Positions 3,177 to 35,300 of a DNA stretch of 64,000 nt are shown here, piece after piece. A program made the translations under genes and the position numbers. The stretch's first letter is position 1. Every line of letters begins with the position of its first letter. The stretch lies in the IMG/VR virus record IMGVR_UViG_3300011862_000001, positions 172,910 to 236,909 of that record; one strand, 5' to 3'. This stretch comes from a virus. Lineage: Duplodnaviria > Caudoviricetes. The notes under the pieces are model-generated. The model was not told the DNA's origin. It was given only the letters and a program-made list of their open reading frames with translations, and searched no databases.

Positions 3177-3180
3177 TACC

Positions 3181-3207: not shown

Positions 3208-3219
3208 GAGGATGTTGCA

Positions 3220-8008: not shown

Positions 8009-8017
8009 GGTACTGTT

Positions 8018-16484: not shown

Positions 16485-17141
16485 TTACAACAGACCTTCG
16501 TCTTTTGCCAACTGCATCACTGCGGTAAAGTCACCTTGTTCGGCGAGCGTACGCAGACGTTGCTTTTTGACGTTGAGCGACATATGCAGGTCGTTATCAC
16601 GTTGGATAATTGCCGCATACAGACCTTTCACATCATCAATCGCAAACGGTTCAACCGGGCTGTTGGTGGCATCAATCCAGTACATCGGGTCAACCCCAGA
16701 CTGGATATAGCCGGTGAGTGCGGTGCGGGATTTCTCGTCAGCCTGGTAACGGTGACCAGCAAACTCGATATCCTGATAACGCAGCTCTGCATAGCGGGTG
16801 TTCATCGCTTGCATCACACGGTTAAACTCACGCCACAGGTGACCTAAGGTTGAGGTCAGCCCTTTGCGGATATCATCCAACGGCAGTTCCAACACGTCTT
16901 TGATAAACGCTTTGGTCTTTTCCATGGTGAACGCCGCTTCGGCATCAGAGAGGTCATGCCCTTTCAGCGCTTTCATCGCCTCTTTATCACTCATGCCGTT
17001 TAGCAGGTGATAATGCAAAAGGGTACAGAACCCTTGGCGCGTGGCGTCTTCAGTTCGCAGAATCCCGCTGTAGTTACCATGGCGGTCAATCGGGGTGCCA
17101 AACTCGAAGTAGCGACGCTTTATTTCGTCATTACTAAGCAT
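16485..17141 (-). CDS. DUF4376-like protein (tail-fibre-associated)
   Basis: C-terminal half: IEFAGHRYQADEKSR..L....WIDATN.. Confidence 0.65.
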   Translation of the reverse strand: MLSNDEIKRRYFEFGTPIDRHGNYSGILRTEDATRQGFCTLLHYHLLNGMSDKEAMKALKGHDLSDAEAAFTMEKTKAFIKDVLELPLDDIRKGLTSTLGHLWREFNRVMQAMNTRYAELRYQDIEFAGHRYQADEKSRTALTGYIQSGVDPMYWIDATNSPVEPFAIDDVKGLYAAIIQRDNDLHMSLNVKKQRLRTLAEQGDFTAVMQLAKDEGLL

Positions 17142-17677
17142 TCAGTTGCTCCTACTAAGCCCAGGTCCATCGCCAAGTCAAAGTCGAACAGCTGGAAGTC
17201 AGTGTAGATATCCTGGCCCCAGACGATGTTCATTTGCTCAGCGTGGTCCTGATTTTGTTCCATATAAGCCCGCGTCAAGTGCATCTCTTCCCCGAAGGCG
17301 TCATACGCTTCGTGGGAACGCACGGCACGTACCCGAAGCTCAGGCCAGCTTAACGCCAGACCAATCAGGTTTTCCGTGTCGAGATTACGCGTAGAGCGGC
17401 GTAAGATTTCGATTTTGTGGCGCGGGAAGTCAGTGACACGCGCTTCAAAGCCCGGGTTACGTTTTTCCACTTCGACCACCGAGTTATGGTGTTCTTCGAC
17501 ACCGTCCAACGTCAGTATCACGTTTAAGCCAAACCGGATACACAGTTTAACGACGTCGTCGGTAAAGGCATCGGGCGCTACCAGCGCATGGGCGTTGTAC
17601 AAGCCGTGCTTGTGCAAAAACGCCGCCACCAGGTGGTGACTACGCTTGGTAAAATTGTGTATCAGAAAGGCTTTCAT
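17120..17677 (-). CDS. Accessory protein of the radical SAM operon
   Basis: GGAG RBS before MKAFLIH; overlaps both neighbours; LTLDGVEEHH resembles an rSAM barrel motif. Confidence 0.65.
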   Translation of the reverse strand: MKAFLIHNFTKRSHHLVAAFLHKHGLYNAHALVAPDAFTDDVVKLCIRFGLNVILTLDGVEEHHNSVVEVEKRNPGFEARVTDFPRHKIEILRRSTRNLDTENLIGLALSWPELRVRAVRSHEAYDAFGEEMHLTRAYMEQNQDHAEQMNIVWGQDIYTDFQLFDFDLAMDLGLVGATECLVMTK

Positions 17678-18980
17678 TAGCAGTGGCTCCAGTTTGGGTC
17701 TTTTTCGCTGCTTCTGCACGTTGACGTACGCAAGACACGCAGTAGCATTGGGTTTTATCGTTTAAGTCGGTATAGCGTACGGTACCAGTTTTCTGGTAGA
17801 AGTATTCCGCGACTAACAGCTTCGCCGTCGTCCATCCACACTGGCGACGTTCAGCGTGGTACTCTTTACGGGCTTCAATCTCACCGTCACCGTTTTCGTA
17901 CGAGGCCGCAGCACAGCTGCCGCACGCGTGTTTCATCGGACACCCTAAGCAGGTCTCTGGGTAGTTGGTGTACTGATTTTGAATCTCATTCAGTAACTTA
18001 CCACCGTCGATGTTAACGATTTCCCGGCCACGCAGTTCAGCGACCGCCTGACGGGTCGTTACGGTAGACATAAAACGGTTGCAGCCGTAAATCTTACGAT
18101 CAAAGCCCAGGCAGGTCATGTGGGATACTGTACCACAGAAAGGACGCACACGCTCCGGGTTCAAACGGGTGGCTTCGTCGTCGAGTAACTTCTGACGCCA
18201 GTCCGGGTCCCAGGTCGCCATAAAGTCCAGACCATCCGGGAAGATGTGAGTCAGACGGTTACGCGGGTCATGCTGCAAGCCTTTGTCAAACCAGTAGTCA
18301 ATCACATCCATCATCTGGTTGGCAATCGACAACGCCGACTGACGTGGCAGCACGTCTTCGTACGTTACGTTACCCGAGATGGTGCCACCGCCGGTGACGT
18401 CAATCAGGTGCTTCATGCTCTCGGCATAACGCGGCAGGGTTTCACTGGTGAAGGTCGCTTTGATACCAAGCTCCAGGATACCCACCGACTTCAGGTAGTT
18501 GTAGCCGCGCATCGCTTTCTCATACGAGCCTTCACGGCTTACCGTAAAGATACGATAGCGGTCGTGCACTTCTGGCAAGCCATCAATCGACACCCCGATA
18601 GACAGCTTGTCGCGCCAGCGTTCGATAATCTGCTGGTTCAGTGGACGGTCAAACAACGTACCGTTAGTGGAGATAGAAAAGATAACGTCGCGATTATCGC
18701 GCTTGGCTAACTCTTCTGCCGCCTCAAAGACACCGAGCAGGATTTTCGGTTGCATCATCGGCTCACCACCGATAATGTCGATAATCACTTCCACGTTCTC
18801 TAAGTGACGGTCACGGTCAAAACACGCATGGATAAAGTCTACCGCGTCATCGACTTTGTTGTTACGCGGGTACTTACGCTCGTAGCAGTATTCACAGTCG
18901 AGGTTGCACGACAGGTTGGTGACCACCTGATAAGTCTTGGTGATTTTGGGTGTTACCACCGGCATTTTATTATCGCGCAT
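17640..18980 (-). CDS. Radical SAM/SPASM-type peptide or protein maturase
   Basis: CNLDCEYC, IIGGEP, STNGT, GVSIDG; auxiliary Cys FCG..C..IYGC..CLGC..ACGSC..C. Confidence 0.9.
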   Translation of the reverse strand: MRDNKMPVVTPKITKTYQVVTNLSCNLDCEYCYERKYPRNNKVDDAVDFIHACFDRDRHLENVEVIIDIIGGEPMMQPKILLGVFEAAEELAKRDNRDVIFSISTNGTLFDRPLNQQIIERWRDKLSIGVSIDGLPEVHDRYRIFTVSREGSYEKAMRGYNYLKSVGILELGIKATFTSETLPRYAESMKHLIDVTGGGTISGNVTYEDVLPRQSALSIANQMMDVIDYWFDKGLQHDPRNRLTHIFPDGLDFMATWDPDWRQKLLDDEATRLNPERVRPFCGTVSHMTCLGFDRKIYGCNRFMSTVTTRQAVAELRGREIVNIDGGKLLNEIQNQYTNYPETCLGCPMKHACGSCAAASYENGDGEIEARKEYHAERRQCGWTTAKLLVAEYFYQKTGTVRYTDLNDKTQCYCVSCVRQRAEAAKKTQTGATANESLSDTQFYQA

Positions 18981-19875
18981 TGCTTAGCCCCACTTGAATT
19001 ACACGATTGATGTAACGATACGCGTCCAGACCGATTACTTCAGCCAGACGGTTACAGCCCGAGTCCAACGCATCGACCGCGTTCTCACTTTGCCCAAAGG
19101 TGGCATCCGATTTCAACCACACCAGGTCACTACAGGCATCACAGTGATGAGTAAAGAACTTGTTCACCGACAATGCGATATGATGACGGTTAATACGGTT
19201 CAGGTTCATCAGCTGTTCATGCATACGGTTATAGCCGTACATAAAGTTCATAACGTGGTCAGGCGACAAGGGCTTCGGCATGAAGTTGTCAAACATCAAA
19301 CGGAACCCCTGAAGCTTGTAGTGGTACATCGCCTCGTGTAACTTCAGCACGTCAAGGTACCAGTATTTGTTCCCTAACTGCTCACGAGTCACCACCGACC
19401 ACAGCTGCACGTTATCGAGCGCATGCAGCACCTCAAACACTTCAAAACGGCGCTCTTCAGCGACGCGCAGTAACGGACGTTCGGTTTCAGCATAGCCATC
19501 AAACGACACGAATATCCGATCAAACTGCGCCAGCACCGGAAGCTGCTCCAGCGTCAAACGTAGCGCGTTGGTGTACATCTCATGTTGCAGGTGCGGGTAG
19601 CGTTCTTTCACCTCCGCCAGAAACTCCCGGATCTTCGGGAATGCCAGTAAGGGCTCACCCCCCGTCCAGTTGATTTGACGAATGGTGGGGTACTGCTCGA
19701 GCAACGCGAACAGTTTTTCTTTTTGAATATCACGACCGCTGTCTTTGATATCCATGTAGCCCGCACCACCACAGAAGCTACAACTTAAGTTGCATTTCGA
19801 TGTGGTCACGATCGACAACTCGGCAGGAGTTGCCGTCGGGTCGCGACGAATGGCCGACACAGCTTCTTCATTCAT
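18970..19875 (-). CDS. Radical SAM protein (short, no full SPASM domain)
   Basis: CNLSCSFC, WTGGEPLL, YTNA, VSFDG; C-terminal CDAC..GC. Confidence 0.88.
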   Translation of the reverse strand: MNEEAVSAIRRDPTATPAELSIVTTSKCNLSCSFCGGAGYMDIKDSGRDIQKEKLFALLEQYPTIRQINWTGGEPLLAFPKIREFLAEVKERYPHLQHEMYTNALRLTLEQLPVLAQFDRIFVSFDGYAETERPLLRVAEERRFEVFEVLHALDNVQLWSVVTREQLGNKYWYLDVLKLHEAMYHYKLQGFRLMFDNFMPKPLSPDHVMNFMYGYNRMHEQLMNLNRINRHHIALSVNKFFTHHCDACSDLVWLKSDATFGQSENAVDALDSGCNRLAEVIGLDAYRYINRVIQVGLSNAR

Positions 19876-19896
19876 TGCAGGTTTACTCCAGTTTTT

Positions 19897-20781
19897 TTAA
19901 AAGGTCAGCGCAAACAACGGATCGTCTTTGATGTCCACACCCGTTTCTAAGATGAACGGTGAGTGGTAAGCGTCCAGGATAGTGTTCAAGACTGTCTGAC
20001 GGTCGTTGATACGCTTTAAATCCGCAAGCGTGACGCTACGCGCAAGAATTTGCGAGACAGCCGCTTGTTCTTCTTTACTGAGGGTAACTTTGTTCAGTAA
20101 GAAGCACACCACTTTCGCCAAATCGGCTTCGGTTCCAGGCGCTTCACCAAACTTCCACTGCACCAGGTACTGCATCCACGGTTTGCGGATACGCTTGGTG
20201 ATTTCGTGTTTATCGGTAAGTCCCACAAACTTCTGCTCAGCGTGGTGCCAGACGAATTTGTAGCTGTAGGCCAGCAGGTCGAGCATATGGTGAATGCCGA
20301 GCTCTTCGTAGCCTTCAATCGGGTAATAGGTTTCGAGACCGCTGTAGTCCACGGTGTCTGCCGGTACCTGGGAATACCAGGTCGGGTGTGAGCTTGGGTA
20401 GTCCCAGCTCCATTCACGACGCACCATCGGCTTTAACCCAGATTGGGTAAACGGCGTCAGCAACATTTCCAAGTCGGCGGTTTGGTTTAACATCCCGTCA
20501 CTCAGGAAATACTTACGGTCGACGAACTTGCCAGTGATTTCCAGTTCGCCGGTGTTCAGATGGATATGTTCTACGGTGTGACCAAGCAGCGTAAAGCTGT
20601 TCAGCACTTCATAGTTCTTCGGGTCCACCAGTTCACGACCACGCACCTTTGGCCATTCGCCAGGCAGCTGCGTAATCAAGCGAATTTGGTCTAACAGGTG
20701 ATACTTCACGCTGTCGTAAATGCTGATATGCAGTGGGAAGTTTTGCGTTGTGCGAAACGCCAAGTGCAAATCGTTCTTCAT
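19897..20781 (-). CDS. Accessory protein of the radical SAM operon, unknown function
   Basis: 294 aa ORF, GGGGA RBS, co-oriented and tightly packed. Confidence 0.7.
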   Translation of the reverse strand: MKNDLHLAFRTTQNFPLHISIYDSVKYHLLDQIRLITQLPGEWPKVRGRELVDPKNYEVLNSFTLLGHTVEHIHLNTGELEITGKFVDRKYFLSDGMLNQTADLEMLLTPFTQSGLKPMVRREWSWDYPSSHPTWYSQVPADTVDYSGLETYYPIEGYEELGIHHMLDLLAYSYKFVWHHAEQKFVGLTDKHEITKRIRKPWMQYLVQWKFGEAPGTEADLAKVVCFLLNKVTLSKEEQAAVSQILARSVTLADLKRINDRQTVLNTILDAYHSPFILETGVDIKDDPLFALTF

Positions 20782-20793
20782 GAAAAGTTCCCC

Positions 20794-21000
20794 TTAGAGG
20801 TTGCCTGCGCCATGGCTACAGCCGCCGCTGCATGTCCAGCTACAGGAACCGCCACAGTTATAATGCCATAAGGGCAGTCCGGCGAGGTTGTTGGTGTAGC
20901 TTACCGTTCCGCGTGTTGCAATGTATTCGTTGGCGTCATCGGTCTTGATGTACTTCTCAACCAGGACCATCCGGTTACGAATGTCTTTGAGTGATACCAC
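20794..21000 (-). CDS. Short Cys-repeat protein 3 (4 Cys)
   Basis: GTG start after GGGGG RBS; leader SLKDIRNR..NNLAG; core CGGSCSWTCSGGC. Confidence 0.75.
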   Translation of the reverse strand: MVSLKDIRNRMVLVEKYIKTDDANEYIATRGTVSYTNNLAGLPLWHYNCGGSCSWTCSGGCSHGAGNL

Positions 21001-21048
21001 ATTAACCCCCAAATGTGTAAAAAGGTCGCGTGAGGGAAAGGTCCGCGC

Positions 21049-21444
21049 TTATCGCGACGGGCCGGAACACCCAGAACACCCAGAACACGATGAGCTGCAC
21101 GTCGAGCTACAGCCGGTACACGCACTGCTACAGCCTGCTGAACAACCACCAGAACACCCTCCCGAACAACCGGTACAGGTTCCTGAACAGCCAGACGTAC
21201 AACTCGCAGAACAACTCGCCCCACACGTCCCTGAGGCTGAACCTGAGCACCCACCTGAGCATGAAGAACACGTCCAACTGCACGTTCCCCCACAGTCGTA
21301 GTGCGTCCGGTCAAAACCGGCAAAGCGGTTAGCGTTATTGGTGGCTTTCCCACGGATATAATTCTGCACCCCATTGACATCACGCAATGCGGTGGCGTCA
21401 ATCGCATTAATGCGATCGCGAATATTCTTTAATAAAATTGCCAT
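21049..21444 (-). CDS. Cys-repeat protein 2 (20 Cys)
   Basis: AGAGGA RBS before MAILLKNIRDR; Ser/Gly/Thr-rich CxxxC/CxxC core. Confidence 0.85.
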   Translation of the reverse strand: MAILLKNIRDRINAIDATALRDVNGVQNYIRGKATNNANRFAGFDRTHYDCGGTCSWTCSSCSGGCSGSASGTCGASCSASCTSGCSGTCTGCSGGCSGGCSAGCSSACTGCSSTCSSSCSGCSGCSGPSR

Positions 21445-21455
21445 GCGTGTTTCCT

Positions 21456-21839
21456 CTACGGTCCAGAACAACCGGAACACCCGGTGCAACTGGATGAGCA
21501 GCTACCGGAACACCCGGAACAGCTTTTTGAACACCCGCCGGAGCAACTGCCGGAGCAACCCGAACAGCCGGAGCATCCCGTAGAGCAACCCCCTGTACAA
21601 CTTCCCGTACAGGTCGAGGTACACGTCCCCGAACAACTCGTACAGCTTGCAGAACATCCGTTAGAACACGACCAGCTACACGACCCGTTACAATCCAGTC
21701 CCGGTTGCGACCACCCGGCGAAGCTGTCTTGTGCGTTATTCGCTTGCACAGCCACCTGGTAATCAACCCGAGGGCCAGTAGCGTATGTGTTTTCCACGTT
21801 CTGCAAACGGTCGCGTATGTTTTTAACTGAGATAACCAT
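21456..21839 (-). CDS. Cys-repeat protein 1 (21 Cys)
   Basis: AAGGA RBS; MVISVKNIRDR leader; CxxxC/CxxC core ending CSGCSGP. Confidence 0.85.
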   Translation of the reverse strand: MVISVKNIRDRLQNVENTYATGPRVDYQVAVQANNAQDSFAGWSQPGLDCNGSCSWSCSNGCSASCTSCSGTCTSTCTGSCTGGCSTGCSGCSGCSGSCSGGCSKSCSGCSGSCSSSCTGCSGCSGP

Positions 21840-21852
21840 ACGTTTCCTTTGT

Positions 21853-21892
21853 TAATAAAAAGTGAGGACTCTGCCATATAGACAGGTCCTCA
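21853..21892 (-). terminator. Terminator-like hairpin upstream of the Cys-repeat genes, with TATG at the loop
   Basis: TGAGGAC-CTGTC-TATAT-GGCAG-A-GTCCTCA-CTTTTTATT. Confidence 0.65.
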
Positions 21893-21902
21893 TGTAATTA
21901 GA

Positions 21903-23102
21903 CTAACGAGTACCGGCTTCTGCCTGTACGTCGTCACGCGTGGTCAGGCTGGCGTTGACGTGAACGTTGGCCTGAATCACGCCACCGTACTGTTTGTGCA
22001 GGTATTGAGTGTGTGGGTCAACGGCTGCCGTGTGGTTAGCCAGACTCTGCGACACGCCAGAGATACCGGCGGTGTTGTTAGCGACCTGTTGACGCAGTTG
22101 CGCCAAGTCGGCTGCCACATCGCGGAATTTCTGCTCAGTCGCAGCACCCTGAGTTTCCAGGTTAGTGACCCGTTGCGCCAAGGCAGCAATTACCTGATTC
22201 TGGTCGGTGACCATCTTCTGGAGTTGCAGCACCAGGTCGTTAAGGTTCGCTAACTGAAGCGCCATACGCTGGTAGTTCTGCGCAACCGAGTTCAGCTGGT
22301 CATTCCAAGACGCCAGGGCTGAAACGATAGCATCGATACGTCCGTTAATCGCGGTGTCCGCTGCTTTCAAATTCCCGATGTCGGAGAGCACTGCATCAAT
22401 CGCGGTTTGTACCTGAGCAATCAGTGCTCGGATTTCCGTTTCGGTTAAGCCGTTGGCCTGATGAATGTCCAGACTGTGAACGTTACCCTGGGCGTTGATG
22501 TGGGTTTGAAGCGCAGTCATAAACTGCGTTTTCATGTCGGTAATCAACGTGGCGAGCTGTTCAAGCTGAAGCGATTGCCCGGCATTAATCACATCACGGA
22601 TACCGGCAATTTCGGTAATGACGTATTCAAAGCCAAACAAGTCACCCAAGTCTTTAAACATCGGCGCACCCGGGAAGGTGTCCGGCACATTACGCAGGTT
22701 CTTAAAGTCAATGATTTTGTCTTCAAGATTGGCATCAGCCAAGCCCTGCTTAATCGCGGCAATGTTCGCTGACTGCGGACCCCCAACCACTTGCGCTACC
22801 GCAATCAGGTCGGTTGGTACAGAGGAATCGGTTACCACCACCGCCATACAGATTTCGCGGTTGTTTGCCATCTTCTGATAAACGGGGTGGGTCAGGATAA
22901 GCTCGTAGTGGGTACCGCGCACTAAGTTCGTGTTCGGGGCACTGGCAGGACGCAAGCGGAACGTGTCTGCATAGAACGGCCCTGCGGGAAACGCAAAGGC
23001 ACGGTTAACTTTACCACCGCCCAAAACGATAGGTACCGAGACCGCATTCGAGGTCATCGTCCCTTTCAAATCAAGCGGGTACTGATAAATGATATCTGGC
23101 AT
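21903..23102 (-). CDS. Virion structural/tail fibre protein with long coiled coil
   Basis: N-terminal GPFY..L.RG.HY module shared with the giant fibres; heptad-rich C-half; H...PH.QY motif; start at MPDII (GGGAG RBS). Confidence 0.7.
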   Translation of the reverse strand: MPDIIYQYPLDLKGTMTSNAVSVPIVLGGGKVNRAFAFPAGPFYADTFRLRPASAPNTNLVRGTHYELILTHPVYQKMANNREICMAVVVTDSSVPTDLIAVAQVVGGPQSANIAAIKQGLADANLEDKIIDFKNLRNVPDTFPGAPMFKDLGDLFGFEYVITEIAGIRDVINAGQSLQLEQLATLITDMKTQFMTALQTHINAQGNVHSLDIHQANGLTETEIRALIAQVQTAIDAVLSDIGNLKAADTAINGRIDAIVSALASWNDQLNSVAQNYQRMALQLANLNDLVLQLQKMVTDQNQVIAALAQRVTNLETQGAATEQKFRDVAADLAQLRQQVANNTAGISGVSQSLANHTAAVDPHTQYLHKQYGGVIQANVHVNASLTTRDDVQAEAGTR

Positions 23103-23148
23103 AGCCAAACTCCCTTAGCAGGACTTCCTTGTCCCTTATCGTGAATGG

Positions 23149-26100
23149 TTAGAAGCTGGTCGACATAAAATGAACCGCGAGATCGCTTGCCGTTTTGCGC
23201 CCGATAAGATCACACCACTTGGTGGCGACGATAACCCCTTCTGGTACAAACAACGCAGGCGGTGTGGTTTCCACCCCGCCGGCCATGACCACCGGTACGT
23301 AACCGTTGCTGTCTGGATAAGGAATCAGCTCGGCTTGTTGCACGGTGCCCGGGAAGCCTTTGACGCCAGTGGCATCAATTGTCATCTCGGTATCCGGCCC
23401 ACTGGCTGCCAGCAAGGTTTCGGTGTTGGTCCCCGCATCGTAGTCGTAAATGGCAAACGCGACGAGCTTATTGCCCCAAGCTTGTACCATCGCCGTTAAC
23501 AACAACCCATTGACCCGCACCCCGGTTAACACGTTAGGCACAACCCCAATCGTTGCAGTTACCGTTGAGCCGACCGGACACGATGCATCCACCCCGTTAA
23601 CCGAGGAGGCGACCGACTGTCCCGTGGTACCGGCTGGGTAGTAAAGCTTGACCCGCAGCTGGTTCTTGGTTGGGGTGACCCGCATAAACGCACTGAACGA
23701 CATACTGCTGGCAGGCAAGCTAGGCGCAGTTAACCCAACCCAGATACGACCAGCAGCATACGCACTCGCGTTCTCTGCCTGTGTGGCAGCAGCCATTTTC
23801 AACTGCGTCGAGAAGCGAAACGCCATATTGCCGTCTTCGGCACCGAGAAAGTTTTTCACGGGCTTTTTGACGACCGGCACACCTGTCGGGCGAAGTTGGC
23901 TCACGGTCACACGACTATAGTAACGACTGTCAAAATAGTTGCCGGGCGTCGCCATGTCATCAGTGAGCGGGACTTTACGCAGCAGACCGAGCGGTGAGTT
24001 GGCCGCATCTACCGCCACGTTCAAATCGTGACTGTGAGACACACCCTGGTGCTCAGCCAGTTGCTTGACATTACCCAGACGTTTTACCTTGTTGATTTCC
24101 AACCCGGTAATACGCGCGTCATCGGTGGTCACTTTCCCCACCCACAGACGGGAGGTAGTGTCCTGAAGACGCTGGGTAGACAACTCGTAATGGGCGCTGT
24201 CGCCGCTACGCACGACGTACAAGTAGAACGTTTGGTTTTGATAGTTGGCAGGAAACGCCTGCTTCAAATCCACGCTCCACGGAGCCAACATAAACTCAGT
24301 AGCCCCGATACGCCAGACAGTTTGTTCGGTGGTGTAGAAGTTCCACCCCTCCGCTGTCTTCATCCCGGTAATAATCACTGAGCCGAGCGATGTCGTCACC
24401 CCGTTGACTAAATCAGACGCCTTCAATAACGGACCGCCTAACAGCGACGGGTCAAAGCCGTTCGATAACTGGGCAAAGCCGCCTAAGTCCGGTACGTACG
24501 TCTCGTACACAGCAGCCGGATAAACGTAGGAGTTCGACGACAACGCGGCAACCGAACCTGACCACACACCCGCTGCCTTAGTCAATGTCAATGCCAGACT
24601 TATCGCATAGGTCCCCCCTGGCATATACGCGGCCATCGCAAACGGCAACGTCAAACGGTATTTCGCGCCGTCTGCGGTAAACAGTGAGGCTTGGCCTACC
24701 CGACGGTTACGGTTGCCATCAAACAGGTCTTGGCGCACTTGCGAGGCATACACCATGGCGTTCGCACGAAAACCGACTGACTTCAGTACCACCCCTGCAA
24801 AGCTCATCTTACCGGCGACGATTTGTGGCGTCAGCTGGTAGAAATAGGTGCTGAGGTAATTGCGGTCGGTGACCATGTTAATGGTAGACACCATCGCGAT
24901 AACCAGCGGGCCATCACTTTGCGATAACCCCAATACCCACAGGTCGATACCAAACGCTCTGCCTCCGGCCATTGCGGCTTCAGCAATGCGTTCTGAGGCG
25001 TAGCCGTTAGCACTGCCCGCTTGTGCCTGGTCGATAATGGCTTGGCGTAACACGGCCCAATCAGCATCAGCCACCGTTAAGCGGTCAGCGGTTATCCCGG
25101 TACTGCCAACAATGCCCCGATACGGTAACGTGGCCGGACCAATGAAGTGTGCACCGTCAAGTAACCCATTCGGGTTTTGAGCATTGACCACCATCGGAAT
25201 CTGCGCCATGGACGCATAGGTTGCCCACGGGACGATGGTACGATTATTCGTCGGACCAAAGCCACCAAACCCTGGCACCCCATAACTGCCTGCCGGGTCG
25301 TACTCGGCCTCCACACAATCGGCCGATGTGACATCGTTCAACCACACTTTACGGGTACCTGGGAAGAACAGCGGCGCTGACATCCCCGCCCTAATAACCG
25401 AACCACGACCATCCGGAATGTGCGTTTCAACAAACTGCGCACCACCGTACTGCATAGCCAGGAAATCAAAGAACGAGACCCCGTCTGGTAATTTCTGAAT
25501 CTCCACACAGTAGTCACGGTTGGTTTCAGTGGAAACGTGGAAGTTCACACTGCGACCATCACCGACGTCAGTAAGAGACACAACGGTATACCACGATTGA
25601 CGGGTGTTCCATTTCACTGGCAGGCCGAGTTTCACGCGGTCACGGGTATACACCCCGTCTGCATCAATGATGAGCGGGAAGAAGTCCGTTAACAGCGTCA
25701 GGTTACCGGTAGCGACGTCAATGTCGACTGCCGAGCTCCAGGTGCCGTACGAGGTGTTCTGCACGTTACCAAAGTAATACGACTGGTGGTTACCCCCGAT
25801 ACGTAATACCCCGCCTTTACACTGTGCGGTCACACGTTGGTTCGGACCACGGGTAAGCTCCAGTGCACGCGGCCAGGCTGCGTTAGCGGCCGGAGTGACA
25901 TAAGCAAACTTACTGGTCCCTGCCACCTCGTTGACATAACTGCCCGGTGCCACAATATCCGCACACTTACCGACCATGCGGCTATAGTTGACCTTCGCCT
26001 GCTTGACGACCAAGCTGTTGGCAGCAAGTCCACTTAACGGGAAGCTATAATAGCCTACCCGGTAAATCGCACTGGCAGAGTAGTTCCCGTTGATATTCGC

Positions 26101-28212
26101 ACGCGTAACATAAAAGGTGGTGCCATCAAAGGTCAGTACGTCAGTATGCATATTCGGGACAAACGGCGCAGTGGTGTCTTCCGCGTAGTCCTCAAACTGA
26201 AGCGCACACACGGTCGTGTGCTTGCGATAGTTTAAGGTACCGTTAAAGTTCACCATATACAGCCTGTCGTCACTGCCACGGGCAATCAGCCCTTCCGCCC
26301 CACTGATAACAATCTCGCGCAGATACACACCCGGGTATTTGGTGGTCATGCCTTCCGGTTGATAACGGAACGAGGTTTTCTTGATATCGGTGACGCTGTT
26401 ATCGGCATTGACGTTGCCGTAGGCGTAATAGATGCGGCGACTGTCCTGCGTACCAGAATGACAGTTCAGCAGCAGGTACACCACATCCCCTTCCACTTTG
26501 GCAGCACCCATCATCTCCACGGTGTTACGGGCAAAGCCTTCGAAGTTCCCGACACCGGGAATTGGCAAGTAGCCCGGGTTACCGAACGACTGTCCACCCA
26601 TGGCCCAGCTTGGCAACAGGTCATTGACTTTCTCACGCAGCGTGTTGATACGCTGTTGAACCGCATAACCCTGCTTGGAAGTCACCACTTTATCGGTGGT
26701 GGCATCAATGGCATCCCACAACTGCACCAGACCGGCATCGGTATCTGAGGCGGTCGGTACACCGGTTAAATCGCCAAAGGTGTGGGCGTGACCCAGGGGT
26801 GCTTTTTCCGTGAGTGCCGTTTTAATGGCGTTGGTCACCGGCTTGTCAATCGGCGCGGTGTTGGTGACCTGGTCTAAGCCAAAATCGCCAGCTGACAGCG
26901 TCAGGTCTTGGCGGTCGTTAGCCAAAACAAAGCCTTTACCGTTAACGGTGTAGGTGTTGTCCACGTAGTTGTCAAGCGCACTCTTTAATGCACTGACCGC
27001 CTTTTGTGAAATGGCCGCCCCGGCAGCGATGTTCGCTGAGAGGTTAGTGACCAGCAACAACCCGGCTTCCGTCGCAGACGCTAAGGGCAGCACCGCGTTC
27101 ATGTTGACCGGGGAAAACTCTTGTGCCGTGCCATAGATTTTCAGGCTGTCGGTCGATTCGAAATAGGCGTTGGCCGGTAACAGCTTCACGGCTGACAGGT
27201 ACAACGACACCATCTCTGGGGTAATCAGATACGCCCCGTTAAAGATAGGCGCTTTGGCACCCGAGGCCACATACATCGCGTTCAGGCCAGCACTGACTTC
27301 CACCGCTATCCCCGGGTCGTTATTGTCGGCATCGGCAATCAACGTTAACGGTTTGGTGGTGGTAATCAGGAACTTATCACCTTGCATGGTAATGACGTGG
27401 CTGGAATCGGCCGTACGGAACGTCAAGGCACCGTTGTTGATAACCCGCAGGCGACCACGCAGCTCGCCTAATACCACCGGCATCAAGGTGTCGATGTGGG
27501 TCTGCTGGATACCGTTGACTTTCATCACCTCAACCAGTTCGTCCACCGTACGACCAAACGCACGGGTACAATCCACGGCTTTGGTTAAAAGCTTTAAGGC
27601 CCCGATTTCTTCGGCTGTGTACTGGTGGGCGTTTTTGATTTTGTGATGCTGGTAGAGGTTGTCATCAAAGATTTTCTTACCGACCTGGAAGATTTGTTCG
27701 GTCACCGCTGCAAAGGCGCTGTCCATCTCAGTCGCACGGGCAAGAATCCCTACCCGGATACGGTCCAGTTGGGCGACGACTTCATCACGTAAAATCGCTT
27801 CATCTAAACTGTGGGGTGGGTCAATGGCAGGCACCACCGGCGCATAGCGCATCAGTGAAGCCCAGTCGATATTACGCGGGTCTTTTAAGTCCGGGTTAAC
27901 CAGGAACTTGCCAATCTCAGATTGGGGGACACGGTATTCACGACCCACGGAATTAATGGTGTACTGAACGGTGGTTTCCGTCAGTAGCATGATGCCGCCG
28001 AACACCTGCGCTTGCAGGGCGTCAGCCGCTTCTTTAAAGTAGTAACAGAGATAGTAATCCAAACCCTCAATCAGGTTACGCCCTGCGGGGGTTTTAAGCA
28101 CTAGCCCTACGCGGTAAAACGGCCCCTCGGGCGGCACCACGACGTTAAACTTGTTCGGGTAGGTGACCGTGGTCAACGTCCCGTTAAACGGTGCCGGGCT
28201 TTGCGTCGACAT
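23149..28212 (-). CDS. Giant tail fibre protein (about 1690 aa)
   Basis: GPFY..EGLDY N-module; PTASDTDAGLVQL, GLDQVTNT..DKPV and GHAHT fibre motifs; start at MSTQS (AGGAG RBS). Confidence 0.75.
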   Translation of the reverse strand: MSTQSPAPFNGTLTTVTYPNKFNVVVPPEGPFYRVGLVLKTPAGRNLIEGLDYYLCYYFKEAADALQAQVFGGIMLLTETTVQYTINSVGREYRVPQSEIGKFLVNPDLKDPRNIDWASLMRYAPVVPAIDPPHSLDEAILRDEVVAQLDRIRVGILARATEMDSAFAAVTEQIFQVGKKIFDDNLYQHHKIKNAHQYTAEEIGALKLLTKAVDCTRAFGRTVDELVEVMKVNGIQQTHIDTLMPVVLGELRGRLRVINNGALTFRTADSSHVITMQGDKFLITTTKPLTLIADADNNDPGIAVEVSAGLNAMYVASGAKAPIFNGAYLITPEMVSLYLSAVKLLPANAYFESTDSLKIYGTAQEFSPVNMNAVLPLASATEAGLLLVTNLSANIAAGAAISQKAVSALKSALDNYVDNTYTVNGKGFVLANDRQDLTLSAGDFGLDQVTNTAPIDKPVTNAIKTALTEKAPLGHAHTFGDLTGVPTASDTDAGLVQLWDAIDATTDKVVTSKQGYAVQQRINTLREKVNDLLPSWAMGGQSFGNPGYLPIPGVGNFEGFARNTVEMMGAAKVEGDVVYLLLNCHSGTQDSRRIYYAYGNVNADNSVTDIKKTSFRYQPEGMTTKYPGVYLREIVISGAEGLIARGSDDRLYMVNFNGTLNYRKHTTVCALQFEDYAEDTTAPFVPNMHTDVLTFDGTTFYVTRANINGNYSASAIYRVGYYSFPLSGLAANSLVVKQAKVNYSRMVGKCADIVAPGSYVNEVAGTSKFAYVTPAANAAWPRALELTRGPNQRVTAQCKGGVLRIGGNHQSYYFGNVQNTSYGTWSSAVDIDVATGNLTLLTDFFPLIIDADGVYTRDRVKLGLPVKWNTRQSWYTVVSLTDVGDGRSVNFHVSTETNRDYCVEIQKLPDGVSFFDFLAMQYGGAQFVETHIPDGRGSVIRAGMSAPLFFPGTRKVWLNDVTSADCVEAEYDPAGSYGVPGFGGFGPTNNRTIVPWATYASMAQIPMVVNAQNPNGLLDGAHFIGPATLPYRGIVGSTGITADRLTVADADWAVLRQAIIDQAQAGSANGYASERIAEAAMAGGRAFGIDLWVLGLSQSDGPLVIAMVSTINMVTDRNYLSTYFYQLTPQIVAGKMSFAGVVLKSVGFRANAMVYASQVRQDLFDGNRNRRVGQASLFTADGAKYRLTLPFAMAAYMPGGTYAISLALTLTKAAGVWSGSVAALSSNSYVYPAAVYETYVPDLGGFAQLSNGFDPSLLGGPLLKASDLVNGVTTSLGSVIITGMKTAEGWNFYTTEQTVWRIGATEFMLAPWSVDLKQAFPANYQNQTFYLYVVRSGDSAHYELSTQRLQDTTSRLWVGKVTTDDARITGLEINKVKRLGNVKQLAEHQGVSHSHDLNVAVDAANSPLGLLRKVPLTDDMATPGNYFDSRYYSRVTVSQLRPTGVPVVKKPVKNFLGAEDGNMAFRFSTQLKMAAATQAENASAYAAGRIWVGLTAPSLPASSMSFSAFMRVTPTKNQLRVKLYYPAGTTGQSVASSVNGVDASCPVGSTVTATIGVVPNVLTGVRVNGLLLTAMVQAWGNKLVAFAIYDYDAGTNTETLLAASGPDTEMTIDATGVKGFPGTVQQAELIPYPDSNGYVPVVMAGGVETTPPALFVPEGVIVATKWCDLIGRKTASDLAVHFMSTSF

Positions 28213-28231
28213 GAATAACACTCCTGCGCTG

Positions 28232-28268
28232 AAATAAAAACGGATACCGCCCCCCGAAAGGGGCGGTA
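28232..28268 (-). terminator. Terminator/attenuator between fibre genes
   Basis: Minus strand TACCGCCCC-TTTCGG-GGGGCGGTA, then TCCGTTTTTATTT. Confidence 0.7.
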
Positions 28269-28299
28269 ACTTACGGACGCACGCCCGTAAGCGTGTCGT

Positions 28300-31200
28300 C
28301 TACACCCAATGACCGAAGTCCGTGCCATCCTGCTGCCGCTCTGCATCCATCTGGGCAGTCAGGTATTCCCACACCCGTTGCGTCATGTGAAAATCGCTAT
28401 TACGCGGTAGAATATACCGCAATCCAGCGAATCGTAATGTTGCAGGCGTATTGTGGGTAAAGCTTTCGCTAACACCACCATTGTAGTTAAACGTTACCGT
28501 GTATTCACACACCAACGGTCCCCGTATTCCCAGCGGTCTCGGCAAGAAGTACAAATAGGCATTGAGTACGGAACGCGCGGCCACGCCCGATACGGACATG
28601 TTTATCGTCTGTACGGTGGTAGGATCAGCAGTCACCGACAACCCATCGCCATACGCACCCGAACCCAGGAACACATCGTGGTTACAACGCACATCGAGGG
28701 TGATTGACGTTACCGGTGTGTTTTTAGTGGATTGAAGCTTCAAAGCAAGCGGCGTATTAAGAATAGCCATAGTGCCTGAACCATCAACAGACGCCCGCCA
28801 GTCGGTTGGTGACACATTGTCTAGCCCCGGCGAACCCACATTGATGGCTTGCTCCCAAAACATCGTCGGTAACTGCCCAACGTGGGAGATTTCCACTGAC
28901 CCTTCCTCACACGGCAGAGAAATAAACTCGGTCGTATTCGGCTGCAATGTAGATGACCCATACGCTGTGCGTGGCATTAATGGCGTAGCCCAACGATTCA
29001 CCGCGTTATCCACGTACGACTCAAACAACGACCGGAAATAATGGTATTTGTTTGCGTCGAAACCACTCGCAGAAATGTCCATCAACGTCGGGAGCATTTT
29101 TATCTGCGTGTACGGCGTGTTAGCCGGAATCACCAACCCAACAAAGCCACCCATAAACAGACTGGCGTCAAAGTTGAACTGGTATTCTAACTCCGTGAGC
29201 TTAATCACATCTGCCACACCGTCGTAGTACAACTTAAACACCCGCAGTACGCGTGTCTTCAGATTGTAACGATAACGGATGTGTTGACGCGGCATGCTGT
29301 TTTTCAAGGTCGGGTAGTCAAGCGCTGATGCATCCGTGATATCCGCCTGACGGACCACCGTTTTCGTGTACGAAGGGGTAACCCCTGCAAACGTCGGTAG
29401 TGTCTTTTGATAAAACGTCTGGACCGCAATCCCTTTCGCAAACCCAATCTCGACACTGTCGTCGGCTTTCAGTTTCAGGTATTTCAACCGATAGTAAGAC
29501 GATGACGCACCCGTACGTGGGGCGACAAACAACAGTTCCGGTTGGGAAGGTAGATTGGGGTACGGCAGCTGATGCTCTGCCAGCAAACTCCCTTCAAACG
29601 TCGGGTTGCCGTTCTCCTTGGGGTTATACGGCGTACGCCAAAAGGCAGGCGACTGGTTATCGACTGCGTACAGCGCGATAAGCGGGTTGGTGTCCTGGCG
29701 AGAGAGATTCGCGTACCAACGATTAGGGTTAATCTCCGTATCGCGGTCCGAATAGACAGCCAGTTGTACCGCCAGTTGAAGTTTACCCAACGGAAGCATA
29801 CTCGAGTTATCCGAGAAGCGCCAATCACCCCGTAGCGGGATATGCGCGTCTTTACGCACGATATGCGTGGCTAACTCTTTGCTGCTACCAAAGTCGGTCA
29901 TCTTCTCAAAGCTGACACTGCTGCCCACTAACCCACCTACCGGCACATCGATGTAACCGATGAAGGCGCGTTCGATGTCAATCCCTTCGGAGAGAATCGG
30001 TTCAGCACGACTGAACAGTGACCCGGTTGCCATATTCAGATACAGGTAATGACGCATCCCTTCTGGGTTGGTCACAAAATCCTGAAGCTGGGTAATCGGG
30101 TTACCGACCTCACTACGCGCGACCGGAGCATTACCATCAAAGATTTCATAGGTAATTCCCGCAGCCCGCGAGGTGTTGTTACAGTTCGACAGAATACCAA
30201 TGCAATGGGTGTCTTGCGTTGGGTCGACATCCGCTTCCACGTACAACGGTGCCGCACCGGCAATCAGTTGTGCCCCATCGAGATACACCGTAACCGGTCC
30301 ACCGCCACTGACGTACATCTTAAGCTTACCGCTACAAATCCGCACTCGGGTTTTGGTAATCATCGGCACCCCAGCGGTGGTACCGCGGGCGGCTGCTGTT
30401 ACCGACAGCACCTGAGGTTGGAGCGTCAACGGCGGCGGCGGCGTTATGCCATTCATTGAGGTTGCCAGCCCACTGCTTTGTACGCCCGCCGGCCAGGTGT
30501 TCTCCAGCACGTTGTTCGGACTAAACCAGTTGAACATCGGGGTGGTTTGCAAATCGATAGTTCCGTTCGCTACCCCTTCACCACGTTCACCATTCAGCAA
30601 ATAGAAGTAACGCAGGTCTTTAACCGTCAGCCCTTTTTTGGTGGCGGTTATCGTCCAGGTCGAATCGTCAATCGCTGAGAAATCGGTGGTTTGCCCTGGG
30701 CGGTTATTCATCGTCGCCGTAGCGATAATGTCTAACCGGTCAGACAACTGTTTTAACAGATTCGGCGTAACGGCTTTTGCCCCACCGACACCATCGACCG
30801 TGTTGGTGAAACGCGCGGCACCGTACGTGCTGCTGGTTGCAGGCACAAAGTCAAGCTCTGACCAATCGTGCTTGTGACCTTTGAGACTTAACGCATCCAG
30901 TTCAAACTGCTGGGCGACTGAAATCGGTTTATCGACATCACGGGTGTTATCGACGTTACCGAGTTGCAGGTCAGCTTTGGTCATCGTACGCTGCCCATCG
31001 TCCATGGCTTTGGAGTTCAGCATGGAGGATTTGGCGACGTACGTCCCGGTCTTCCCTTCGTACGGCGTTAACGAGTCCGGTGTGGCTGCTACCCCACTGG
31101 TTTCGGTCCCCGGCCCTGATTTCAAGCGAGCCACCCCTTTGGTGGTGGTAGTGGCAGTCGGGGGCGTTAAGGTGCCTTTAATCGGGTCGGCTTTGGAGCC

Positions 31201-32358
31201 TTTACCGGTAAACGCTAAACCATTACGGCCTTCTATCCACAGCTTGTTATCATCAGGGTCAGTGTTGTCCGCGTTGCCTTGGCTTTGGTAAGCACGCAGC
31301 GTGGTGGTGGTCAACAGCACAACGCCGTTAAGCATCAGCTTGTCCATCCCCAGCGCATTACCGGATGACTCAATACGCAGGGTATTGACACCGGACTTCC
31401 ACTCCATAAAGCGCAGCGTCGGGTCATCAGGAAGGTAGCCTGCGGCGAGGACAATCGAGCCGTTAGACTTAAGCGTAAAGGCCGTATCACTGAAGGTGAT
31501 TTCTGAGGTACCACCGGCAGATTTAAACAACTGACGGTTAGGAGCCAGTTGCTGGACAAACACCCCATCGACGTTTTTGCACGCCCATTTCTCGACGTAC
31601 TTATCGATATCCGATTGCTGTAAGCCGAGAGCCCGAATCTCTGCGGTTAACTGGCGCAGTGTTTTACCGAAGGCCAAAAAGGTATCCGGGGTTTTCAGGT
31701 TAACGGGATGTGCCCCAGATTGAGCAAGGGTGATGCCGTGTGCTTTGTGGTCAGCAATGTGCGCTGGGTAGTTAAACGCCGTCACCTCAGCTTGAAGCGC
31801 GGTCACCGTGAGACGCAGGCTTTCCAGCTTGGCTTTCAATACGTCATTGGCATTACCTGACGCCAGTTCAATATCGGCTACCGCAGAAGCGAGGTATTTT
31901 TTGTTGAGCAAATCCGCCCAAGAGGTTGCCGAGGGCATGGTCGGATAAAGCGTCGGTCGGTTTTCGGTATTGAGCCAATCGCCTTCTTCCGGGTTATTCA
32001 GGTACTTTACCAACTCATCGAGAATATCGACAAACGGAGAGTAGAAACTGTCACCGAGCACTTGGCCTTTAAAGGTTAAGGTGCCGGAAACTAACGGGTT
32101 GGTTAACTCAATCCCACAGAACACCGGGGATGCCACACTGTCATCTAACTCAGCGAGTTGATAGACCAGTTCATAATCCACACCCCGCACAAGCGGGGTG
32201 GTGCTGCCTGCTACCGTAACAACCAGACTGGTGCCGAAAAAGGGGCGGTGCTTTAGCACCACCACTCGGTCAGCTTGGTTATCAGCGCTCACGATGCGAT
32301 CTTCAGTAAACGCGTTAGCAGGATTGGTACCCTTCCAATCGTAAGGATACGTTCCCAT
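28300..32358 (-). CDS. Giant tail fibre protein (1352 aa)
   Basis: PFF..LVRGVDY; ATTTTKGVARL, LGNVDNT.D.DKPIS, GHKHD. Confidence 0.75.
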   Translation of the reverse strand: MGTYPYDWKGTNPANAFTEDRIVSADNQADRVVVLKHRPFFGTSLVVTVAGSTTPLVRGVDYELVYQLAELDDSVASPVFCGIELTNPLVSGTLTFKGQVLGDSFYSPFVDILDELVKYLNNPEEGDWLNTENRPTLYPTMPSATSWADLLNKKYLASAVADIELASGNANDVLKAKLESLRLTVTALQAEVTAFNYPAHIADHKAHGITLAQSGAHPVNLKTPDTFLAFGKTLRQLTAEIRALGLQQSDIDKYVEKWACKNVDGVFVQQLAPNRQLFKSAGGTSEITFSDTAFTLKSNGSIVLAAGYLPDDPTLRFMEWKSGVNTLRIESSGNALGMDKLMLNGVVLLTTTTLRAYQSQGNADNTDPDDNKLWIEGRNGLAFTGKGSKADPIKGTLTPPTATTTTKGVARLKSGPGTETSGVAATPDSLTPYEGKTGTYVAKSSMLNSKAMDDGQRTMTKADLQLGNVDNTRDVDKPISVAQQFELDALSLKGHKHDWSELDFVPATSSTYGAARFTNTVDGVGGAKAVTPNLLKQLSDRLDIIATATMNNRPGQTTDFSAIDDSTWTITATKKGLTVKDLRYFYLLNGERGEGVANGTIDLQTTPMFNWFSPNNVLENTWPAGVQSSGLATSMNGITPPPPLTLQPQVLSVTAAARGTTAGVPMITKTRVRICSGKLKMYVSGGGPVTVYLDGAQLIAGAAPLYVEADVDPTQDTHCIGILSNCNNTSRAAGITYEIFDGNAPVARSEVGNPITQLQDFVTNPEGMRHYLYLNMATGSLFSRAEPILSEGIDIERAFIGYIDVPVGGLVGSSVSFEKMTDFGSSKELATHIVRKDAHIPLRGDWRFSDNSSMLPLGKLQLAVQLAVYSDRDTEINPNRWYANLSRQDTNPLIALYAVDNQSPAFWRTPYNPKENGNPTFEGSLLAEHQLPYPNLPSQPELLFVAPRTGASSSYYRLKYLKLKADDSVEIGFAKGIAVQTFYQKTLPTFAGVTPSYTKTVVRQADITDASALDYPTLKNSMPRQHIRYRYNLKTRVLRVFKLYYDGVADVIKLTELEYQFNFDASLFMGGFVGLVIPANTPYTQIKMLPTLMDISASGFDANKYHYFRSLFESYVDNAVNRWATPLMPRTAYGSSTLQPNTTEFISLPCEEGSVEISHVGQLPTMFWEQAINVGSPGLDNVSPTDWRASVDGSGTMAILNTPLALKLQSTKNTPVTSITLDVRCNHDVFLGSGAYGDGLSVTADPTTVQTINMSVSGVAARSVLNAYLYFLPRPLGIRGPLVCEYTVTFNYNGGVSESFTHNTPATLRFAGLRYILPRNSDFHMTQRVWEYLTAQMDAERQQDGTDFGHWV

Positions 32359-32369
32359 TGTGTCTCTCC

Positions 32370-35300
32370 TTATTCACGAATTATCACCGCCCGGTACGTG
32401 GTACCGGAACGGGTCACTATCGCACGTTCTTTATTCAGGTAGTCAGGAATACCAGCAGGGCGTTTGACCGCACTGGCAAAGTCGTCATTGGTCGCTTTAT
32501 CCTGAAGTGCATCCACACTTCTGGCAACCCCCGCGTCACCCATTATCACCCGGAAACGGCGCACATCACTAATGCCATTAAAAAGCGCAATCCCGGTTGC
32601 ATAACGCGACTGGAACTGACCATCGTTGGCATAGCTCATTTTGACAACCGTGTTGGTCGCCATTATCCCACCCACACCGTGTTGAATCGGCCAGGCAGGG
32701 TCACTTACCACATCACTGATATCGGTTGATGTCAGGGACAGGTAGGTGGTGATGTTCACCGATTGATTAACAGGGCCAGTGACACTGAAGGTAGGCATAC
32801 CGGCTAACTGCAAGGTGAAGTTGTGCACCACATCGCTGCTGCCGATGGTGAGCGTTAACGTGCCAGTCACATACGGCGCACCGTTAGCGTCGCGTGACAT
32901 GGCAAACGACACCCGAGGGTTTAACGCACTCCACGTCCACCCGGTGGTGTACTTGGTGCCATTGATGGCAATAATATATTGCCGTGACGTTCCGTAGTTG
33001 ATAGCGAGCGCGGCGTAGCACAACGACCCATCGCTTGCGGTAATGAAGTTGGTGCGGTTAATCAGCAACGACAAGCGTTGACGACGGCCACTGCGGTCGA
33101 CGAAACTCATCAACACCACTTCCAATACCGAGGCAGCAACCGGGGAGGTTAAGCTGAACTCAACATTAATACCACCGGTGGCGTAGTAGTCACCCATGTT
33201 GAGTAACACTTTGTGCGCCGCCACCGTGCTGCCTTTTTGGGCAAACAGAAAACTGTCGGGGTTATAATCGACATCGGTAATCGGCACAAAGCTCTCGCCT
33301 TTTACCATACGCCAACTGCTATCGCCTCTCACCATGTGACCCGGAAAGCCTCTCCAGTCCGCACCGTTACGTCCGAAGTTGAAACCATACTGGGCTTCTG
33401 TCATCTGACGCGGTGTGTGCGCGTTAACATTCGCGGCGTGTTCTTCTAACTCACGGAACTCACCTAAGCGTGTGACGTTGCGGATAGTGATTTGGTCGAT
33501 ACCGGTTTCCGAGGTGAAAATCTCACCGATTCTGGTTAAGGTATCGGTTTCCCCGAAGGCTGGGTTAGCGTTAAGGACATAACGGGCGGCGTTATCAATC
33601 AAATCCACAAACACGCCAATCACCGTGTCCTCGTGCTTATCAGGAAACAGTTCTGTCAAGTTAAAGGTAGCAACCGGTACCGTGTAATCCTGACCGAGGA
33701 AATAGTTGTTGGGCTTCACGGTGACCATCCAACCGTTTATCGTGGTCAGATTATCAATCGGGCTACTGCCGGATTGACCGTAGCGAATGATGTTGATAAC
33801 CGCTTCGGCGTCAGAGTGAGCAACCAGCGCTTCCAGTTGGCTGACCGCGTCAAACTGTGGCAGCACGTACTGACCATCAAGTGCTAAGGTAGCATCATCG
33901 ACCGGTCCACCAAACTTCACTAAGCCTGCCTTAGCCGTCGTCGCATTCCCAATGCCGAACGCATCGGCGGTGTGGGTATGGGTGGTTTGGGCGTACTTGC
34001 GAAACTCGGTGTTCTGTAAGCTTGACACCGGCAGATTAAGGTCAGCGATGTTCTCCACGTTCGCGAGGTTAATATCGCTCTTGCCTAAGGTCACAGAAGA
34101 AAGCAGCGGGATACCGTTGATGTACGCTTTGGCCATCTCCAGTTTACCGACAAACGCGTTGGCAAGCTTTTGAATCAGTGCCGGGGTTGCCGCTAAGCTT
34201 TCGGAGTTACCGAAATCGTTGGTCAGTTGACGATACGCGTTGGTGGATAAGTCGCTGTCGTCTGGCGGCACGTAGGTGCAGATAAACGGCATGGTTTGAA
34301 TACCACTGCCCACTATCGTGACGCTGTTGCTGTTGACCCCGTAGAACACCCCTGAACCCCCGCCTTCGTTACCCGGGATATACGGGCCTACGGTCGTTGG
34401 GTCAAGCAGCTTCTTACCGTTCCACTGAAAGCCCCGGTTATCGGGATAGAGGACAAGGCTGTTGTTACCCCCTTTAAAGGTAATCGGATTGGTACCAGCA
34501 TTGATAGTAGTGGAGTCACGACTTAACAGACGAATGACTTTGTCATCAACCTGAAGGCTACTGCCTACCCCATCGCTTTCATTGCCTTTGGCAGACGTCA
34601 CAGACGCCAAGCCCGGGATCATGGTGAAGGTACCGGTGATAGTACGCGGTGCTGCACCCACGCGTTGCATCTTATCGCTAAAGTCGCTGGCTTTGGCACT
34701 GCGCTGATTCACGTAGTCGGTCAGGTTCGCTTGGTTGCGACCGGAGACAAGTGTCGTGTCATCGGCAATACCGTTTAGCTCAACGGTGCGCATCCGCCCG
34801 TAGGACGCATCCTGGTGGGGGTTGGCAGTATCGGCAACATGAGGATGGGCCGGCGCATCACGGTAGATTTTATCGACGATGGCGTGGTATTGCTTTAATA
34901 AGGTAAGCACATCGGAGTTGTCACCGTTGGGGGTGGCAAGCTTAGCCCCGAGGTCGGCAATGGCTTGCATCAGCTCACGTTCAGCTTTCCACTGGTCCCA
35001 GTCAAACTGGATATCCACCGGCGGGAAGTAGAGTTCACCGATGACTTGTTCCCACTGACACTTCGAGGGGAACACATCGCTGTTAGCCGCCCGTTCTGCA
35101 CTAATCTGCGCGGGGGTTGCTTTGCCAATACCGAGTGCATGATAGCTCAGGGTAAAGCCTGAGGTATATGCCGGGTTCACCACCAACACCATACCGTGTG
35201 CCGAACGCCCGGTTCGGGACATTGCAGTCATGTACGGATGGGTTATCAGGTAGTCGTTACCCAGTTTTAATTCAGTTGTGCCGCTTTTCACCACCAGAGT

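Follow-up and report, generated by a model that had tools for sequence, protein, structure and literature searches.

What the N-terminal parts of three cysteine-repeat proteins do is the question raised by a gene cassette in the jumbo phage genome IMGVR_UViG_3300011862_000001 (236.9 kb), of which a window of 64,000 nucleotides (positions 172,910 to 236,909) was analysed. The three precursor genes, here called A, B and C, adjoin a gene for a radical S-adenosylmethionine (SAM) maturase with a SPASM domain, an association that is syntenic in 29 loci. Next to such enzymes, the N-terminal part might be expected to act as the leader of a ribosomally synthesised and post-translationally modified peptide (RiPP), to be removed once the cysteine core has been cross-linked. 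The initial annotation had instead proposed that the leader is kept as an assembly domain, through which the three paralogues trimerise and dock onto the neighbouring fibre protein. Our best reading, which we hold tentatively, is that the leaders of A, B and C are retained N-terminal adapters of the fibre type. It draws on a conserved amphipathic helix at the N-terminus and on homologues in which the leader or the cysteine repeat is built into fibre-like proteins.

The N-terminal helix of the cysteine-repeat proteins

Protein A begins with an N-terminal part of about 49 residues, followed by the entry motif CNGSCSWSCS and a CXXX/CXX repeat. All three proteins match the full-length profile of phrog_6085, a phage protein family of unknown function (E = 3.1e-44 for A, 1.2e-48 for B and 7.9e-26 for C), and none of them matches Pfam or the curated target models of NCBIfam at E 0.01. 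Near each N-terminus lies a hexamer related to the pattern R-h-x-x-h-E (h, hydrophobic), and a fourth occurs in the adjacent 401-aa fibre protein. These four hexamers, to which the initial annotation had drawn attention, are all present, on the minus strand (Table 1), with the correction that RINAID of protein B ends in Asp and is not a strict match to the pattern.

The leader hexamers are placed as a trimerisation motif would be, taking the canonical g-a-b-c-d-e positions of an amphipathic helix that is conserved, and in which L5, I8, L12 and V15 take positions a, d, a and d, R11 takes g and E16 takes e. In an alignment of 50 leaders from SPN3US-like phages, columns 3, 5, 8, 12 and 15 are hydrophobic in 94-100% of sequences, column 11 holds Arg in 42, Lys in 3 and Gln in 5, and column 16 holds Glu in 34 and Asp in 10. 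Asp ends the motif in 13 of the 20 distinct B leaders, and the form R-h-x-x-A-E is kept by distant C-like homologues (P0009, P0016, P0019 and P0023). The alignments indicate that the leader motif is one inherited, selected feature, conserved well beyond chance; its three occurrences in the window are paralogous copies and are therefore counted once. Among distant fused proteins, R-h-x-x-h-E stands upstream of the Cys run only in two proteins of locus L030 (RASIIE and RVSILE), and the motif is a property of the phrog_6085 family, not of the whole superfamily. A word-indexed homologue search with leader residues 1-60 returned no match. Given leader A together with the leader alignment, AlphaFold2 (AF2) predicts a helix over residues 5-19, a break and a second helix over residues 22-35, at a low predicted local distance difference test (pLDDT) score of 59 to about 67.

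The leaders resemble the trimerisation motif of Kammerer et al. (2005), which the FapF study cites and tests (PMC6173795), both in pattern and in register, with g taken by Arg, e by Glu and both a and d by hydrophobic residues. In FapF the coil is about 38 residues long and experiment has shown it to be a trimer, whereas the phage leaders have only two heptads conserved in register. Unlike those of the Kammerer motif, their key residues are often Asp, Gln, Ser or Lys.

Homologues built into fibre-like proteins

A search of the leader profile against 1.84 billion representative sequences gave 27 hits. Protein P0027 (211 aa) carries the entire phrog_6085 module, from profile position 5, at residues 98-208 (E = 2e-19), and the N-terminal domain ahead of this module matches a tail-fibre phrog. 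The stretch of P0027 that corresponds to the leader helix, KLEAIDNTITVITQAIENLDKNF, keeps to a hydrophobic spacing of 3-4 throughout, and the P0027 gene lies directly upstream of genes for a radical SAM enzyme, a homologue of the 294-aa helper protein of the window and a radical SAM/SPASM enzyme. In an otherwise syntenic 222-kb metagenomic jumbo phage contig (L094), paralogue C (8001-8633) bears an extra C-terminal domain of 145 aa, rich in beta structure, that comes after its four Cys. PHROG gave no match for this added domain (residues 60-210) and Pfam none for the whole protein; the domain is a candidate receptor-binding add-on. At locus L029, the gene for a PF12571 tail-collar fibre protein (E = 1.8e-40) that terminates in a Cys repeat of the CSG type is followed by genes for a 250-aa protein, a radical SAM/SPASM enzyme 31% identical to that of the window, a second radical SAM enzyme and the tail sheath. 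At locus L031, a Cys block stands directly ahead of an S74 intramolecular chaperone domain.

Taken together, these four cases have the polarity of a fibre, with the N-terminal part proximal and the Cys repeat distal. Retention of the leader, as opposed to its cleavage, is thus supported by comparison, through the architectures of P0027, L094 and L029; for the virion itself, we infer it. No peptidase and no exporter or transporter family was recognised in the conserved cassette across the 29 loci, in line with the missing leader peptidase that the initial annotation had sought to explain.

Other Cys-repeat types (CxCNxxC, CQxxCQ and CNCNYxC) occur with more distant radical SAM genes on other viral contigs, at loci L030, L032, L036, L037, L043 and L060/L063. 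In this set the repeat lies at the C-terminus of proteins that range from 166 to 1370 aa, and its first Cys usually adjoins an amphipathic helix.

A proposed retained adapter and competing roles for the leader

On our reading, the N-terminal parts of A, B and C, each of about 50 residues, are most likely not disposable RiPP leaders. The three proteins would instead be miniature tail-fibre subunits, whose N-terminal part serves as a retained, virion-proximal adapter and whose C-terminal Cys repeats the two radical SAM enzymes would cross-link. The amphipathic helix formed by residues 3-16 is short, of two heptads, with Leu, Ile or Val in the a and d positions, Arg in g and Glu or Asp in e, and it stops at a Gly/Pro break much as the final heptad does in trimeric phage-fibre coiled-coil segments. 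Such a helix could be an oligomerisation or docking handle that gathers three chains, or that seats a subunit on a fibre, the tipless 401-aa protein being one example, and it may also offer the maturases or the 294-aa helper a grip on their substrate. A trimeric coiled coil is a plausible mechanism, but one that has only two heptads to build on. The motif, its register, its conservation and the fused homologues are observed; a place in the virion, trimer formation and a docking partner are what we infer.

A likeness to a known kind of fibre points the same way. Leader columns 5-32 align with one unit of the 29-residue repeat of a fibre-like protein, P0025, with an hhalign probability of 89.9% and a score of 28.3, which was reached in 0 of 300 column permutations (maximum 17.6). 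P0025 contains 13 R-h-x-x-h-[ED] sites, and its repeats match three trimeric coiled-coil fibres, the P22-type tail needle gp26, reovirus sigma-1 and T4 fibritin. In gp26 (4LIN), fibritin (1AA0) and sigma-1 (6GAJ), coiled-coil segments are closed by repeated units of the form R-h-[ST]-x-h-E-x-G. What the leader resembles is one unit of the related repeat in P0025, so that its link to these structures is indirect, and it is a single unit where they are long shafts.

The neighbouring 401-aa fibre protein does share the hexamer. Its RVTNLE lies in a coiled coil, where it occupies the final heptad ahead of TQG in an a/d run that continues unbroken for seven heptads over residues 268-317, with V314 at a, L317 at d, R313 at g and E318 at e. 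The protein combines this coiled coil with an HxxxxDPHxQY motif, is without a large tip and has its first ~220 aa in common with the 1352-aa giant fibre. The hexamer itself, however, is generic. Across the genome there are 23 strict sites in 21 of 248 open reading frames (ORFs), that is, in 8.5% of them and at 0.31 per 1000 aa, which gives a chance expectation of about 0.12 strict sites in the 401-aa protein, or about one such protein in ten. The four fibre proteins are not enriched for it (3 sites in 4460 aa, counting the E/D form), and among 17 orthologues of the 401-aa fibre the motif is kept at this site in 11 and absent in 6; in the CR5/Phobos/Derbicus group the motif site lies about 30 residues further on, and in the Wellington group the site reads QIDDLK, or EIDDLK in one. 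The co-occurrence of the motif in leader and fibre is, by these counts, not statistically meaningful. Because the hexamer is common genome-wide, not enriched in fibres and absent in 6 of 17 orthologues, its presence in both is no evidence of specific contact.

Several further observations weigh against a fibre-type adapter. It was the same leader profile that picked P0025, and nine matches of 4-10 bits to near-identical repeats add up to the library E-value of 2e-6 for this protein; an unrelated 1061-aa RTX-like protein (P0021) outscored it in the same manner (E = 4e-9, from five near-identical repeats of about 9.5 bits each), a case in which library E-values overstate the evidence for repeat proteins. 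Searched against PDB sequences, the leader profile found no solved fibre; its sole matches were an ankyrin and a designed coil, both with E >1. Given the selection by the same profile, the repeat-summed E-value and the lack of a direct match to a solved fibre, the likeness between leader and P0025 is suggestive only. Against the 401-aa protein the leader profile gave a non-significant E of 1.3 (rank 2 of 248 ORFs); the P0025 repeat profile also ranks this fibre second of 248, both profiles matching at the RVTNLE site, and with E-values of ~1 neither rank is counted as evidence. Among 59 distinct leaders, only 32 have the strict ends R..E, the others being R..D (13), R..Q/S (6), Q..E (5) and K..E (3), and in the Derbicusvirus clade A has R..S/Q and both B and C have Q..E. 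The register common to all paralogues is limited to two heptads, residues 3-16; a coiled coil of several heptads, as found in the 401-aa fibre, is not found in the leaders, and a stand-alone coil of two would be marginal. At columns 17-19, the A, B and C groups differ by paralogue-specific indels of 1-3 residues, and these break a shared A:B:C coil register past column 16. Column 3 is Ile or Val in 100% of leaders, yet would fall at an exposed f position, a pattern that fits binding to the surface of another protein better than a plain coiled coil. Nor do the published mass-spectrometry data on SPN3US virions (PMC5694885, PMC10052503) lend support: gp167, the orthologue of the 401-aa protein, is a virion protein and gp161-166 are not listed, and the absence of A, B and C from these proteomes is uninformative because their genes are unannotated.

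The rival that we take most seriously, a live one though less likely than the adapter, is that the N-terminal helix is solely a recognition sequence for the radical SAM/SPASM enzyme, the second radical SAM enzyme or the helper, and that its match to a trimerisation motif merely follows from an amphipathic helix in which one Arg and one acidic residue are conserved, unrelated to trimer formation. The N-terminal motif and the CxGxCSW entry motif are common to all three paralogues, as would suit one enzyme set, the invariant Ile/Val of column 3 lies off the coiled-coil face, and the low confidence of the AF2 monomer is what a segment that folds on binding would give. A precedent is CrpC, a SPASM enzyme of Methanococcus voltae that installs thioethers on the 28.8-kDa CrpA, likewise a Cys-rich protein and not a short peptide. 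The N-terminal domain of CrpA contributes to binding by the enzyme and is not known to be cleaved off; its first residues are a predicted recognition sequence, and their truncation lowers processing (PMC13692751). CrpA is a modified protein and not a peptide that is set free. However, CrpC has a RiPP recognition element (RRE), whereas the phage enzymes are without a recognisable one, and CrpA is an archaeal protein of unknown function, not a virion component. In both phage radical SAM enzymes the CxxxCxxC motif starts at about residue 25, which leaves no room for an N-terminal RRE, and the helper has no RRE-like or other known fold that could be recognised. Furthermore, what is best conserved at long distance is hxG-x3-4-HY[DN]CxGxCSW, not the N-terminal motif, in the place of which P0027 has KLEAID. 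A handle for the maturases would in any case be compatible with a second, structural role.

Coincidence, in which the hexamers of leader and fibre are alike by chance and the leader helix has an unrelated role, strikes us as improbable. The genome-wide frequency of the motif, the lack of enrichment in fibre proteins, the non-significant profile matches and the absence of the fibre site in 6 of 17 orthologues are all as it would predict. It fits less well with the exact g-a-b-c-d-e register of both sites, each in the last heptad ahead of a Gly break, with the clear selection on the leader Arg and Glu/Asp, and with the second rank of the 401-aa protein among 248 ORFs for two different profiles at the same site. 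A classical RiPP, whose leader would be removed by a host peptidase or an unrecognised phage one to free the cross-linked Cys core, is very improbable. It would account for the leader-core layout beside PapB/CXXX-type maturases and for a conserved [FL]-x-G that lies 6-9 residues ahead of the core and is loosely like a double-glycine site. Against it stand the lack of any peptidase or exporter in the cassette over the 29 loci, the invariable place of the cassette between fibre genes and the DUF4376 fibre chaperone, and the homologues with tail-fibre fusions or C-terminal globular domains.

Returning to the retained adapter, a more specific version of it has the helices of A, B and C form a thioether-stapled trimeric tip, either a 1:1:1 heterotrimer or one homotrimer per giant fibre, that fits onto a fibre without a tip of its own, for instance the 401-aa protein. 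We rate this version as improbable. Cytoplasmic cross-linking would then build a modular, exchangeable receptor-binding end, and the Derbicusvirus pattern, in which Arg is confined to A and Glu to B and C, would be consistent with a salt bridge between chains in the order A to B. From a functional standpoint, if the leader is retained, these genes are not an antibiotic-type peptide pathway and would represent an enzyme-cross-linked part of the phage host-recognition apparatus, of which we found no description for phages in the literature searched; searches that covered radical SAM enzymes together with CXXX repeats, with SPN3US or with Cys-rich tail fibres, and ranthipeptides together with phage tail fibres, gave no relevant paper. 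In that case, the tip carried by each fibre would be decided by the short helix as their joint, with a bearing on the host-range engineering of jumbo phages in laboratory strains.

The gene cassette, its enzymes and the annotation of related phages

Positions 17000-23200 of the window have ~75% DNA identity to the Erwinia phages Caitlin, ChrisDB and phiEaH2. Along the minus strand, the giant fibre genes are followed by those for the 401-aa protein, A, B and C, the 294-aa helper, the radical SAM enzyme, the radical SAM/SPASM enzyme, an accessory protein and the DUF4376 protein (Table 1). This order is identical in 10 annotated phage records and 17 IMG/VR contigs, in a survey that covered the genera Seoulvirus, Erskinevirus, Machinavirus, Derbicusvirus and Wellingtonvirus, and the position of the cassette is constant, with fibre genes on one side and the DUF4376 fibre chaperone on the other. 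The giant fibres are paralogues of 1690, 1352 and 1017 aa (23149-35423, minus strand), 22-25% identical over their N-terminal ~500 residues, and their number, three, matches that of the Cys-repeat proteins. For protein C, a TTG start at 21012 was considered and set aside, as homology and a GGGGG ribosome-binding site favour the GTG at 21000.

Table 1. Positions in the window of the cassette genes and of the four hexamer motifs
Feature	Position	Strand	Description
DUF4376 protein	16485..17141	-	218 aa; family of tail-fibre assembly chaperones
Accessory protein	17120..17719	-	~185 aa; phrog_7988 matches ORF residues 15-199
Radical SAM/SPASM enzyme	17640..18980	-	446 aa
Radical SAM enzyme	18970..19875	-	301 aa
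Helper protein	19897..20781	-	294 aa; phrog_8030
Cys-repeat protein C	20794..21000	-	68 aa, 4 Cys; likely start GTG at 21000
RMVLVE	20956-20973	-	residues 10-15 of C
Cys-repeat protein B	21049..21444	-	131 aa, 20 Cys; ATG start at 21444; GAGGA ribosome-binding site
RINAID	21397-21414	-	residues 11-16 of B; Asp in place of Glu
Cys-repeat protein A	21456..21839	-	127 aa, 21 Cys; AAGGA ribosome-binding site; phrog_6085
RLQNVE	21792-21809	-	residues 11-16 of A (g-a-b-c-d-e)
401-aa fibre protein	21903..23108	-	orthologue of SPN3US gp167
RVTNLE	22155-22172	-	residues 313-318 of the 401-aa protein

The best NCBIfam matches of the 446-aa enzyme are TIGR04115, the maturase of CXXX-repeat targets (123.6 bits against a cut-off of 350), and PapB, NF047865 (122.9 bits against 340), both below cut-off. 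The cassette is like these ranthipeptide systems in the best families of its enzyme and in having Cys at every third or fourth residue, and unlike them in scores far below the cut-offs, in the lack of a target-model match and of any peptidase or exporter seen, and in its setting in a tail-fibre operon. The 294-aa helper is conserved in every related cassette, including the compact one of L092. Its AF2 model is confident (pLDDT 86), and comparison of the fold gave no Foldseek match and a best VIA-align Z of 4.9, limited to a helical hairpin; identification of the helper as an RRE or as a peptidase was considered, and with the fold unrecognised neither could be assigned.

The Cys region is frequently mis-annotated in related phage records because it also contains spurious long ORFs, in other frames and on the opposite strand. 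In the window these span 20901-21407 and 21407-21877 on the minus strand and 20921-21301 and 21484-21762 on the plus strand, and their products are rich in Val, Ala and Arg or in Pro, Glu and Gln. The SPN3US record (JN641803; L011, 9192-10221, minus strand) leaves the true genes for A (130 aa), B (134 aa) and C (68 aa) unannotated; in JN641803 they occupy the complement strand at about 143828-144220 (A), 143413-143817 (B) and 143191-143397 (C). What the record annotates instead, SPN3US_0166 (gp166, 111 aa), is out of frame with peptide B, whose Cys repeat it overlaps, and is rich in Val and Ala. In the same phage, gp171 and gp172 had been taken as the neighbours of interest and were dropped, as the record shows the orthologue of the 401-aa protein to be gp167. 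A frameshift divides peptide A in the record of SEGD1 (L004, ~3030-3520).

Paralogue C of Derbicusvirus and Wellingtonvirus (L006-L009 at ~3955-4172; L022-L026) keeps the leader and the CxGxCSW entry motif, has lost its later cysteines (2-3 Cys remain) and ends in CSWSSSGGAKAVTWPS; it may be a non-substrate or minimally cross-linked member of the family.

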